Origin: Erysipelotrichaceae bacterium
GTDB taxonomy: Bacteria > Bacillota_I > Bacilli_A > Erysipelotrichales > Coprobacillaceae
NCBI GenBank assembly: GCA_021202205.1
Contig: JAJQDJ010000170.1
Location: 1-24,765 of the forward strand
Direction: 5' to 3'
Length of the DNA: 24,765 bases
Shown here: piece by piece, positions 6,769 to 11,274 of the stretch
Numbering within the stretch: position 1 is the stretch's first letter
Layout: each line of letters begins with the position of its first letter
Position numbers and translations under genes: made by a program
The notes under the pieces: model-generated
What the model saw: only the letters and a program-made list of their open reading frames with translations
Told to the model about the DNA's origin: nothing
Database searches by the model: none

Positions 6769-7955
6769 TTTTTATCCTCTTCTTTCATTAATCTTTCTAG
6801 TATTTCATAAGCTAAATCTTTTTTAGACATGATATCCAGATTTTCTATACTATCTTTCGTTATCAAAGTCACAACATTGGTGTTGGTTTCAAAACCCGCA
6901 CCTTCAACTTTTAGATTATTCGCAACGATCATATCACAATTTTTCTTTTCTAATTTCGTTTTGGCATTTTCTATTAAGTGATTTGTTTCCATAGCGAAAC
7001 CACATAGTATTTGATGATCTTTTTTGTGTTGACCTAAATAATAAAGAATATCCTTATTTTTTTCTAAATCCAATATCATATGATCATCATTTTTCTTGAT
7101 TTTTTCATTACTTATATTTTTAGGACGATAATCACCAACAGCAGCAGCAAGTATCAAATAATCTTGCTTATCTGAAATAGATGTAATTGTTTCAAACATT
7201 TGTAATGCACTCATAACATTGATTATCTTGATATTAAATGGTTTTTCTATATATGTAGGTCCACTGACTAAAGTGACATCTGCACCTAAATTATAAGCTG
7301 CTTTCGCTACAGCATAACCCATCTTTCCACTGGAATGATTGGTAATATATCTTACGGGATCCATCGCTTCCTGTGTTGGTCCAGCTGACACGAGTACTTT
7401 TTTGCCTAATAATGGTTTTGGAGCCAAAACATATTCTAATGCATCAATCAATTTACTTTCACTTGCCAGTTTACCTTGTCCAACATCACCACAAGCTAGT
7501 AATCCTTCATCTGGTTCAACAAAATAAACTCCAGTATCTTTGAGTATTTGGATATTTCTTTGAGTTATGGGATTTTGATACATATGTATATTCATAGCTG
7601 GTGCGATAATCTTTGGACAAGTGGATGCTAAAAATGCACATGTGAGCATATTATCTGCCATTCCATAAGCAACTTTAGCAATTGTATTGGCACTTGCTGG
7701 GACAATCATAAAAGCCTCAGCTTTAGCTGCAATATCAACGTGGGTAATAGTAGCAGGCTCTTCTTCGTCAAAGGTATCGACATAGACTTTACTTTTGGTT
7801 AGTGATTGGATGCATAGTGGGGTTATAAACTTTGTAGCACTTTCACTCATTAAAACATCAATTGTATAATTCATTTTGACTAAATCACTAATCAGTTGTA
7901 TAGCTTTAAAAGCTGCAATGCTTCCAGTTATTCCAATAATAATTCTTTTTGACAT
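6762..7955 (-). CDS. coaBC: Bifunctional phosphopantothenoylcysteine decarboxylase / phosphopantothenate-cysteine ligase
   Basis: GITGSIAAFKA, PASANTIAK, PAMNIHMY, LACGDVGQGKL, SAGPTQEAMDPVRYITNHSSGKMG, AAAVGDY, GFAMET. Start moved from 7982 to ATG 7955 (AGAAAGGA RBS at 7970-7963). Confidence 0.96.
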   Translation of the reverse strand: MSKRIIIGITGSIAAFKAIQLISDLVKMNYTIDVLMSESATKFITPLCIQSLTKSKVYVDTFDEEEPATITHVDIAAKAEAFMIVPASANTIAKVAYGMADNMLTCAFLASTCPKIIAPAMNIHMYQNPITQRNIQILKDTGVYFVEPDEGLLACGDVGQGKLASESKLIDALEYVLAPKPLLGKKVLVSAGPTQEAMDPVRYITNHSSGKMGYAVAKAAYNLGADVTLVSGPTYIEKPFNIKIINVMSALQMFETITSISDKQDYLILAAAVGDYRPKNISNEKIKKNDDHMILDLEKNKDILYYLGQHKKDHQILCGFAMETNHLIENAKTKLEKKNCDMIVANNLKVEGAGFETNTNVVTLITKDSIENLDIMSKKDLAYEILERLMKEEDKKC

Positions 7956-7970
7956 TGTTTTTTCCTTTCT

Positions 7971-7997
7971 AAAAATAGCCATTTCAAAAGAAATGGC
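7971..7997 (-). terminator. Intrinsic terminator within the coaBC-coaX 5' leader (attenuator)
   Basis: Minus strand GCCAUUUC-UUUU-GAAAUGGC-UAUUUUU ending immediately before the coaBC RBS; no minus-strand gene lies upstream for it to terminate. Confidence 0.85.
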
Positions 7998-8020
7998 ATC
8001 ATAAAAAGTTTTTTTAATTC

Positions 8021-8111
8021 AACTGTCATTTCTTAAGAATATAACGTTTCTTTTTATTTTTTATAAGAATTGTTAATGCTATAAAAGTCACTACAAAAAT
8101 ATTCTTATAAA
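8021..8111 (-). ncRNA. Tandem double-bulged-A hairpins in the coaBC leader; candidate pan-motif-like cis-regulatory RNA
   Basis: Hand-folded. Hairpin 1 (8095-8071) and hairpin 2 (8048-8021) each have a 5-bp helix with a central wobble, flanked by a 5'-strand bulged A (8088; 8040) and a 3'-strand bulged A (8073; 8024). Hairpin 1 is enclosed by an 11-bp stem (8111-8101/8070-8060). Resemblance to the pan RNA motif is from memory; no covariance model was run. Confidence 0.65.
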
Positions 8112-8119
8112 TATCCTTA

Positions 8120-8148
8120 ATTATACCCTCCAAAAATAATGAATGCAA
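8120..8148 (-). promoter_or_regulatory. Sigma-A promoter for coaBC-coaX
   Basis: Minus strand TTGCAT(8148-8143)-17 bp-TATAAT(8125-8120); predicted TSS near 8113, giving a leader of about 158 nt. Confidence 0.7.
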
Positions 8149-8191
8149 CATTCTTTTTTTGTAACTTATTTTTAACAATAATAACTTTGAC

Positions 8192-8220
8192 TTGAAAAAA
8201 ATTTGTTAGAGTGCAATAAT
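8192..8220 (+). promoter_or_regulatory. Possible sigma-A promoter for the SRPBCC gene
   Basis: TTGAAA(8192-8197)-17 bp-TGcAATAAT; the first -10 position is non-consensus. Confidence 0.3.
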
Positions 8221-8242
8221 GGTTTCGTGGGGGTTTTGATAT

Positions 8243-8638
8243 ATGATTATAATCAATAATGAAGAGAAACTTAACGGAAAAGTCGAAGATGTATGGAAAC
8301 TTGTCAGTGATTTAAGTGATCAATCTTGGCGTAATCATCTTAAAAGTAGTCAAGTCATTGATAGTAAGCATTATCAAGAAATAAATGATCAAGGATTGAA
8401 AACAACGATTATTTTATTAAATAAGATTGTTTATGATGTTTTTGAGTTTAACTTTACTAATGAAGAATATGATGGTCATTGGCTTGCTAAATTTGAGGTT
8501 ATTGATGATCATACAACACTATTACATATTACTGCTGCTTTTGAAATGAAGAAAAAAACGATGTTTGCAAAAAATAGTTTCAACAAAATTGTTAAACAAT
8601 ATTTTAATGATTTGCAACAAGCTTTAAAGAAAGAATAA
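8243..8638 (+). CDS. SRPBCC / polyketide-cyclase-like (START-fold) protein
   Basis: VEDVWKLVSDLSDQSWR..L, FEF..N..YDGHW...F, C-terminal helix KQYFNDLQQAL; pattern recognised from Firmicute SRPBCC proteins. Confidence 0.7.
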   Translation: MIIINNEEKLNGKVEDVWKLVSDLSDQSWRNHLKSSQVIDSKHYQEINDQGLKTTIILLNKIVYDVFEFNFTNEEYDGHWLAKFEVIDDHTTLLHITAAFEMKKKTMFAKNSFNKIVKQYFNDLQQALKKE

Positions 8639-9623: not shown

Positions 9624-11274
9624 TTTGCGAGAGAAAATTTTGGAAGTGTGGTATGATTTTTGGGATAATTTGAATGCTAAAGGGCCAGTTAATAATAAAG
9701 GTACAATAATTTCGTTGGTTATAACATTGGTATTTTTTATTATTGTAGAGTATTTTTTATTGTTACCTATTAATTTGCGTTCTTTTAGCTTTACATTATT
9801 TTTATGTATATGTTTGATTATATTTATTGTTTTAAAGAGTTTTATTTGCCTGGCTTTTGATAATATTTCGAAAGCTTGTTGTATTTTAACATTGATATTA
9901 GGTGTTTATCTTGGTGTTGGTTATCTTATCAGTTCACCTGTTATCAATGCATCTCAATATCAATCACAATTGGATATGAACAGCGAAGCTGATTTTTATA
10001 GTGATTTTGAGAATATTAGTTATTCTTCGATACCTGTTGTTGATAGAGATAGTGCTCAACGTCTTGGAGATCGTAAGATGGGAGAAATTGTAGATTATGT
10101 TTCCCAGTTCGAAGTGGATGAAGAGTATGCTCAAATCAATTATGATGATACGCCTTATCGTGTCACAACGATTAGTTATAGTGATTTAATAAAATGGTTT
10201 ACCAATCAAAGCGATGGTTTGCCTGCTTATATTCGTGTGAATATGGTATCCCAGGAAAGTGAAGTTGTAAGATTGGATAATGGCATGAAATATTCCCGTA
10301 GTGATTTGTTTTTTCGAAATATTAATCGTTATTTAAGAGTGAAATATCCAACTTTGATGTTTGAAGATCCAACTTTTGAAATAGATGATGATGGTAATCC
10401 ATATTGGATTGCACCAGTTTATAATTATAAGATAGGCTTATTTGGTGGTGAAGATATTACAGGAGCTGTTTTGGTTGATGCATGCAGTGGTGAAAGTCAA
10501 TATTATGATATTGATGATGTACCAAGCTGGGTGGATCGTGTTTATCCTGCTGAATTATTATTAACTCAGCTTACCAATTGGGGTCAATATGGTAATGGTT
10601 TCATTAATAGTCTTATTTCGCAAAAAGGTGTTCTAACTACCACAGATGGTTATAATTATTTGGCTTTAAATGATGATGTTTATCTTTATACAGGTCTTAC
10701 ATCTGTGTCAAGTGATGAATCAAATGTTGGTTTTGTACTCATTAACATGCGTACCAAGGAATCCAATTATTATGCAATTAGTGGTGCAGAAGAATATTCC
10801 GCCATGTCTTCTGCAGAAGGTAAGGTCCAAAATTTGGGTTATGAAGCGACTTTCCCAATTTTAATCAATTCAGGTGGTCAACCAACATATTTCCTTTCTT
10901 TAAAAGATAGTGCTGGTTTGGTTAAACAATATGCTTTTGTGAATGTGCAAAATTATCAAATTGTAGCTGTAGGTGAAAGTGTTGCTGAAGCTGAATCGAA
11001 TTATTATCAGCTATTGGTTGATAATGGCATAGAAGATGTGACTTATGATACAGCAACCTTATCAGGAACGATTAGTGATATTCAACAAGCTGTTGTAGAT
11101 GGAACTTCTTATTATTATTTTAAGTTAGAAGGTTATGATGATATATTTATAGCATCTGTATCTTTAAATGATGCTTTACCTTTGATACAAGCAGGTGATC
11201 AAGTGTCTATTGATTATTCAGATAGTGGTACAAACTCTCAAAACGTCTTAACATTGGAGGTTTTAAATGAATAA
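9616..11274 (+). CDS. Conserved uncharacterised membrane protein: three N-terminal TM helices, large acidic extracytoplasmic domain
   Basis: Hydrophobic segments at about aa 31-53, 58-80 and 85-105; SQFEV..YAQINY, KYPTLMFE.P.FEIDD.G.PYW, TTTDGYNY, SDESNVGF, ATFPILIN motifs that I recall from clostridial hypothetical proteins; 8-nt overlap with nrnA. Confidence 0.75.
   Translation: MFNLREKILEVWYDFWDNLNAKGPVNNKGTIISLVITLVFFIIVEYFLLLPINLRSFSFTLFLCICLIIFIVLKSFICLAFDNISKACCILTLILGVYLGVGYLISSPVINASQYQSQLDMNSEADFYSDFENISYSSIPVVDRDSAQRLGDRKMGEIVDYVSQFEVDEEYAQINYDDTPYRVTTISYSDLIKWFTNQSDGLPAYIRVNMVSQESEVVRLDNGMKYSRSDLFFRNINRYLRVKYPTLMFEDPTFEIDDDGNPYWIAPVYNYKIGLFGGEDITGAVLVDACSGESQYYDIDDVPSWVDRVYPAELLLTQLTNWGQYGNGFINSLISQKGVLTTTDGYNYLALNDDVYLYTGLTSVSSDESNVGFVLINMRTKESNYYAISGAEEYSAMSSAEGKVQNLGYEATFPILINSGGQPTYFLSLKDSAGLVKQYAFVNVQNYQIVAVGESVAEAESNYYQLLVDNGIEDVTYDTATLSGTISDIQQAVVDGTSYYYFKLEGYDDIFIASVSLNDALPLIQAGDQVSIDYSDSGTNSQNVLTLEVLNE

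Follow-up and report, generated by a model that had tools for sequence, protein, structure and literature searches.

A pan-like two-hairpin leader that most likely shuts off the vitamin B5-to-coenzyme A genes through a terminator in an Erysipelotrichaceae bacterium

The coaBC-coaX locus and its leader

The window analysed here is a stretch of 24,765 nucleotides from an Erysipelotrichaceae bacterium. Its minus strand carries coaBC and coaX, preceded by a leader with a candidate promoter, two hairpins of similar shape, an intrinsic terminator and a Shine-Dalgarno (SD) sequence. A mechanical open reading frame call had placed the coaBC start at ATG 7982. This start was rejected, as it lies within the terminator stem, whereas the ATG at 7955 is preceded by the SD and aligns with the homologues. 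The leader and the genes are composed as follows.

8148-8120, minus strand: candidate promoter, with -35 TTGCAT (8148-8143), a 17-nt spacer and -10 TATAAT (8125-8120)
8111-8060, minus strand: P1, an 11-bp stem (8111-8101 with 8070-8060) that carries hairpin 1 at its tip
8095-8071, minus strand: hairpin 1, with 2 bp, a 3' bulged A8073 (or A8074), 5 bp, a 5' bulged A8088, 2 bp and loop 8085-8081
8059-8049, minus strand: A-rich linker without a strongly conserved base
8048-8021, minus strand: hairpin 2, with 3 bp, a 3' bulged A8024, 5 bp, a 5' bulged A8040, 3 bp and loop UUAA
8034-7988, minus strand: putative alternative (antiterminator) pairing of 8034-8024 with 7998-7988, 10 bp with one mismatch
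7997-7971, minus strand: intrinsic terminator, with an 8-bp stem (7997-7978), loop UUUU, and then UAUUUUU
7968-7963, minus strand: SD AAAGGA, preceding the coaBC start
7955-6762, minus strand: coaBC (Pfam DFP and Flavoprotein; NCBIfam coaBC_dfp, 454 bits)
6768-5989, minus strand: coaX (Pfam Pan_kinase; NCBIfam type III pantothenate kinase)

Sequence comparison showed that both promoter hexamers, TTGCAT and TATAAT, are kept in two leaders of the same genus. The -35 hexamer has only 3/6 matches to the consensus, which explains why the promoter was missed by a consensus scan. Transcription of coaBC-coaX is predicted to start near position 8113.

Direct reading of the minus strand confirmed that every pair listed for the two hairpins and the 11-bp stem in a preliminary description of this DNA is present. 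In hairpin 1, the pairs are U8095-A8071, G8094-C8072, 8093-8089 with 8074-8078 (one of them G.U), C8087-G8079 and U8086-A8080. The register of this hairpin is ambiguous at the AA run 8074/8073: the bulges can be 4 or 5 bp apart, and the family agrees with either reading equally well (53/59 each). Folding with RNAfold recovers the 11-bp P1 stem and both hairpins, with slightly different registers. The whole leader is more stable than shuffled sequences (z -3.55). P1 together with hairpin 1 has a folding energy of -10.5 kcal/mol (z -3.4), hairpin 2 by itself has little stability (-2.9 kcal/mol, z -0.85), and the terminator folds with -11.8 kcal/mol (z -5.0). A terminator scan found one, against 0.1 expected in shuffled sequences. 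Hairpins with two bulged A residues and 2+5+2 bp occur ten times in the window, against 8.1 +/- 3.4 expected from dinucleotide shuffles; in one sequence the double-bulged-A geometry is no rarer than chance, and its significance comes from comparison.

Conservation, distribution and regulated genes

A covariance model, R1, was built from the two-hairpin element and used for genome searches, and an alignment of 63 distinct sequences was fitted to it. The preliminary description had named conservation of the paired positions and of the bulged A residues in orthologous leaders as decisive, and this conservation was found: 95.8% of the cells are paired, against 27-57% when the partners are slid, and 18 of the 19 pairs show double, compensatory changes. 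Hairpin 1 contributes 9/9 compensatory pairs with 94.8% of the cells paired, and hairpin 2 contributes 9/10 with 96.7%. A structure-blind MAFFT alignment of 24 leaders, followed by RNAalifold, also recovers both hairpins with 14 of 17 pairs compensatory, and 97.8% of the cells of this alignment are paired when our structure is imposed on it.

Conservation is highest in hairpin 2. Its two bulged A residues, and the C-G pair that adjoins the 3' bulge, are the same in 64/64 sequences, whereas the bulges of hairpin 1 are A in 58/59 sequences on the 5' side and in 55/60 on the 3' side. The loops and the linker are not conserved, with 43 distinct loop-2 sequences among 64 leaders, and the spacing from bulge to bulge between the hairpins varies from 30 to 46 nt (median 37). 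A central wobble pair, earlier regarded as a feature shared by the two hairpins, is not a property of the family: this pair is AU in 24, GU in 17 and GC in 13 sequences for hairpin 1, and CG in 36 and UG in 25 for hairpin 2.

The pairing also tells which strand and which molecule are concerned. G.U pairs fill 80 of 1164 cells (6.9%), and pairing drops from 95.9% to 89.0% if the opposite strand is read, which argues that the structure is that of the sense RNA and not of DNA or of the other strand. The sequences flanking hairpin 1 pair in 58 homologues (mean 12 bp; median z -2.9 against shuffled flanks). Since they do so in nearly all homologues despite very different, unrelated sequences, P1 is part of the element; a compensatory change in P1 from A-U to G-C is seen in leader L005. 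A -10-like hexamer directly precedes the element in 56/64 homologues, which suggests that the element forms the start of the mRNA.

The R1 element occurs in 64/74 sampled genomes of the family to which the window belongs and, for a sister family, in 11/75. Two more families of the class have it, one of them represented by Turicibacter. It is thus concentrated in Erysipelotrichales and Turicibacter. According to the named records, the groups with the element include Stoquefichus, Coprobacillus, Longibaculum, Massilimicrobiota and Catenibacterium, and further Sharpea, Kandleria, Eggerthia, Breznakia and Turicibacter; the named relatives within the family of the window are genera of the Coprobacillaceae type. 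CoaBC homologues were found in 46/61 related genomes. A pattern scan of the species genomes gave 72 loci, 32 of which were not confirmed by R1.

Two deviating forms were observed. Two R1 matches, L095 (6864-6983) and L150, with 51 and 40 bits, lie in metagenome-assembled genomes of Acutalibacteraceae; they have a canonical hairpin 2 with SD and a different first domain, and no long open reading frame was found downstream of them with the standard code. In the one further family of the class, L071, L084 and L085 have a single-hairpin form, consisting of hairpin 2 and the SD only, which directly follows the end of the upstream gene and stands before a gene for an ECF S component.

In the two genomes of the same genus, as in the window, the leader lies directly 5' of coaBC. 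Most of the family has a gene for an ECF S component (Pfam PF12822) 5' of coaBC, and the two-hairpin element is found 5' of that gene. The encoded protein has a relative in the S chain of PDB 4rfs (E 2e-21; substrate-binding protein S according to the PDB title), which we take to be the ECF pantothenate transporter of Levilactobacillus brevis; because of this relationship we call the gene panT. The downstream genes at every inspected locus are panT, coaBC and/or coaX.

In the genome of the window, a second copy of the element (47 bits) stands ahead of a panT-like gene on contig C13. In the two genomes of the same genus and in G255, too, panT and coaBC are each preceded by a copy. Two copies were likewise detected in G229, where the copy 5' of coaBC (L090) was confirmed. 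Neither panB nor panC was found in the genome of the window, which is 96% complete; import of pantothenate followed by CoaX and CoaBC is therefore its route to CoA.

Several features of these surroundings were observed in passing. The panT-like gene of the second copy (L035 1600-2235; C13 about 10410-11045) has three interruptions at homopolymer runs when compared with an intact orthologue from the same genus, including an A-run after codon 8 and a compensating pair of frameshifts that encloses an in-frame TAA; either the gene is decaying or the draft assembly is in error here. In G255 (L164 150-620), the motif and SD are followed by an 11-codon open reading frame in place of panT, with coaBC-coaX about 150 nt later. 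This short frame may encode a leader peptide or be what is left of panT. At L091 1617-1735, two genes 3' of a copy of the motif, there is an L20 ribosomal-protein leader (54.8 bits against the Rfam cut-off of 58.7), an ordinary feature.

A conserved neighbour gene was sought as a candidate for a binding protein, and nothing convincing was found. Only a small rubredoxin-like open reading frame (Cys-X2-Cys ... Cys-P-X-Cys, recognised by eye) recurs, probably by synteny. It is divergent from the leader in many relatives (L004, L005, L007, L009, L011, L013-L017 and L032), on the opposite strand and upstream of the leader. Its place in the window is taken by an open reading frame of 131 amino acids (8243-8638) with a weak, sub-threshold match to Pfam Polyketide_cyc2.

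Relation to the pan motif

The pan motif (Rfam RF01749) was described by Weinberg et al. (2010, Genome Biol 11:R31, PMC2864571), with the remark that 'most occur in tandem'; the account of this work in the preliminary description proved accurate. Bacillus subtilis is among the organisms with a native pan motif. The structure of the Rfam model is <<<<<<<<-<<...>>>>>>>->>>. Its outer helix has 3 bp. Each hairpin of the element described here follows the same plan: above the outer pairs comes a bulged A on the 3' side, 5 bp separate it from a bulged A on the 5' side, and two or three apical pairs close a variable loop. A U-A pair follows the 5' bulge in both motifs. The hairpin with two bulged A residues and 5 bp between them is found as hairpin 2 in 64/64 sequences. 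As in pan, the window and most homologues have the hairpins in tandem, separated by roughly 30 nt rich in A and U, and the second hairpin ends at the SD (in 60/64 homologues; the window and three other leaders have a terminator). A terminator is also present 3' of a canonical pan example, L033. Further, both motifs belong to the vitamin B5/CoA pathway and both are orphans.

There are also clear differences. Hairpin 1 is placed on the long extra stem P1, and the conserved bases are GU-R-R-U-G[A]C ... G-C-A-Y-U-A[A]C in hairpin 1 and C-G-U ... G-A-Y[A]G-U in hairpin 2. The element occurs in Erysipelotrichales and Turicibacter, and it precedes panT, coaBC and coaX, whereas pan is found at operons of panB, panC and panD (aspartate decarboxylase). 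The pathway assumed in the preliminary description was thus the right one, with the qualification that the genes concerned serve uptake and utilisation (panT, coaBC, coaX) and not the steps of panB/C/D.

The search of the leader with the Rfam pan model that had been proposed as a check gave no match. With the gathering threshold of 36.2 bits the model has no match in the window, nor does it have one at E<=10 on positions 7900-8250, where the Rfam matches were noise such as miRNA and snoRNA models and were discarded. When the model was run on the whole genome of the window, the site was not among the matches, and the two weak matches that did appear were rejected since they lie inside coding sequence. 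Among relatives, no match was found at the gathering threshold in 20 loci, or at E<=1 in six loci. Across 150 genomes of the class the model detected one canonical pan, L033, and none in the order of the window; in a sample of the phylum it found none. L033 precedes a dehydrogenase-like open reading frame and then a gene that resembles panB by eye. R1 in turn does not match L033.

The two motifs are linked indirectly, through some leaders that lie closer to pan. Sub-threshold pan matches coincide exactly with the homologous leaders L072 (28.1 bits) and L076 (23.2 bits), which R1 detects with 46 and 42 bits, and in each locus that leader is the best pan match. In the alignment of L072 with the pan model, hairpin 1 matches at every pair. 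The panT leader of the genome of the window has a second type of hairpin 1, AAGAG[A]UC...GACUUUU[A], with the A-UC...GA signature of pan.

Taking the sequences together, we read the element as a divergent variant of pan; it is pan-like but falls outside the family as Rfam defines it, because the pan model fails at the gathering score. Common descent with pan can only be presumed, since the pan model misses the window and R1 misses canonical pan. The control of the pantothenate-to-CoA steps by a pan-type RNA, as put forward in the preliminary description, is consequently borne out as far as a conserved cis-acting RNA is concerned, with pan architecture, in tandem, and abutting the SD in relatives; the part that did not hold is recognition of the window by the pan model.

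Proposed switch, effector and meaning

In 60/64 leaders the end of hairpin 2 (...AGU) directly abuts GGAGG. A terminator platform replaces this SD-adjacent form in L003-L005, which represent the genus of the window, and independently in L090; the case for a terminator with alternative pairing thus comes from three closely related sequences and one independent lineage. As in attenuators with an intrinsic terminator, the window has a terminator between promoter and start codon and a predicted, mutually exclusive upstream pairing. The antiterminator fold (8037-7986) has an energy of -7.1 kcal/mol, compared with -2.9 for hairpin 2 and -11.8 for the terminator. Its pairing is kept in L004 and L005 (sister species), with a change from G-C to G.U in L005. 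We infer the antiterminator from these sequences, three close ones in the genus of the window. Hairpin 2 with the terminator is already the minimum-energy fold (-15.5 kcal/mol), and the ON state would therefore need kinetic control. Full-length minimum-energy folds of the leaders were noisy and were left out of the switch model. A look for RNA sequencing runs found none listed.

The following mechanism is proposed. The transcript would begin in P1, capped by hairpin 1, and continue through the A-rich linker into hairpin 2. An effector that signals sufficient CoA or pantothenate would bind both hairpins and stabilise the weak hairpin 2. In the bound state, the 3' arm of hairpin 2 would be kept from the 5' arm of the terminator, the terminator would form, and transcription would stop before coaBC (OFF). 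When the effector is absent, the 3' arm of hairpin 2 could pair with the 5' arm of the terminator, giving read-through (ON). In the SD-type relatives, where the element precedes panT-coaBC-coaX, the bound hairpin 2 abutting GGAGG would block entry of the ribosome. The two-hairpin leader thus most likely shuts off the genes leading from vitamin B5 to coenzyme A by means of the terminator; the OFF logic, the start site and the effector are all deduced. That the element is a divergent, lineage-specific form of the pan motif which attenuates coaBC-coaX in an effector-dependent OFF manner is, in our judgement, probable.

The arrangement resembles established regulatory systems to different degrees. 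By analogy with PyrR-type attenuation, where the anti-antiterminator hairpin is stabilised by a protein, a bound upstream hairpin would withhold the antiterminator strand and leave the terminator to form, but the binding loop of PyrR resembles the element in neither sequence nor structure. In the E. coli thrS operator and in the dual-hairpin targets of ANTAR proteins, a dimeric protein recognises a pair of like hairpins that adjoin an SD or terminator. There the loops carry the recognition bases, whereas here the bulged A residues and flanking pairs are conserved and the loops vary.

As effector, we lean towards a dimeric protein, which seems somewhat better than an even bet, over a small molecule, which seems less likely. 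A protein, probably a dimer, is favoured because conservation is confined to the bulged A residues and their flanking pairs, because the loops and linker are variable, because the SD adjoins hairpin 2 instead of being paired within it, and because the original authors of the pan motif judged the same.

A true riboswitch would differ in that the bulged-A hairpins themselves, alone or docked, bind CoA, dephospho-CoA, 4'-phosphopantetheine or pantothenate and so stabilise hairpin 2. We consider this rather unlikely for the element, although a conserved structured domain joined to interchangeable platforms (terminator or SD) and a regulon confined to one cofactor pathway are what it would lead one to expect. 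Tandem small hairpins can make a ligand-binding riboswitch, as in guanidine-II (mini-ykkC), where small similar hairpins also stand in tandem upstream of an SD, so that a simple RNA can sense a metabolite; the ACGR loops of mini-ykkC are conserved and dimerise, however, whereas the loops are not conserved here. With two unpaired conserved bases per hairpin and variable loops and linker, there is little from which a selective pocket could be made, and the SD is not sequestered by pairing. Also in favour of direct binding, no CoA riboswitch or other RNA sensor of CoA is known, and the field regards this gap as conspicuous and expects one to exist (Breaker 2022, PMC9971707). The statement in the preliminary description that no natural CoA riboswitch is established agrees with that review, and we found no paper that reports one. 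Our literature search likewise retrieved no paper after 2010, when the pan motif was described, that names its effector, and no report of a CoA riboswitch or of an RNA element of panT/coaBC; two recent papers on CoA mention no RNA regulator. The wider proposal, that the element and the whole pan family are riboswitches in which the double-bulged-A hairpins directly bind coenzyme A or 4'-phosphopantetheine, is slightly more doubtful still.

It is very improbable that the structure is constitutive, for example a 5' stem-loop acting against a 5' exonuclease, with the terminator as an unregulated partial stop and no sensing. Such 5'-terminal stems stabilise mRNAs in Firmicutes, and in most homologues the predicted transcript begins with P1, but a stabiliser would need neither invariant bulged A residues nor a second hairpin of the same geometry exactly at the SD, nor would it be restricted to leaders of panT/coaBC/coaX or occur as two copies in one genome precisely before both halves of a split pathway. 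That a dimeric repressor binds the inverted repeats as DNA operators just 3' of the promoter can practically be dismissed: the repeats are imperfect palindromes immediately 3' of the -10 box, but their stem sequence changes freely while complementarity is kept, the frequent G.U pairs (80/1164 cells) would be A-C mismatches on the other strand, and the asymmetric single-base bulges are invariant, whereas protein operators conserve the sequence of half-sites and not pairing.

An RNA element that responds to an effector remains the preferred reading. The type III pantothenate kinase used by these organisms is not known to be feedback-inhibited by CoA, which suggests that what is sensed lies downstream of pantothenate. 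The whole branch goes undetected by Rfam 15, and annotation pipelines therefore leave the leaders unmarked in common gut Erysipelotrichales. The variant offers over 60 natural sequences, which are short, diverse and AT-rich, have two kinds of platform and present clear bases to mutate. If it were true that the pan family binds CoA or 4'-phosphopantetheine, the Erysipelotrichales form would control exactly those genes, panT, coaX and coaBC, whose product level is sensed, and direct binding of CoA, if proved, would make it the long-missing coenzyme A riboswitch. Through this variant the pan architecture is connected with vitamin B5 uptake and with the first committed steps towards CoA.
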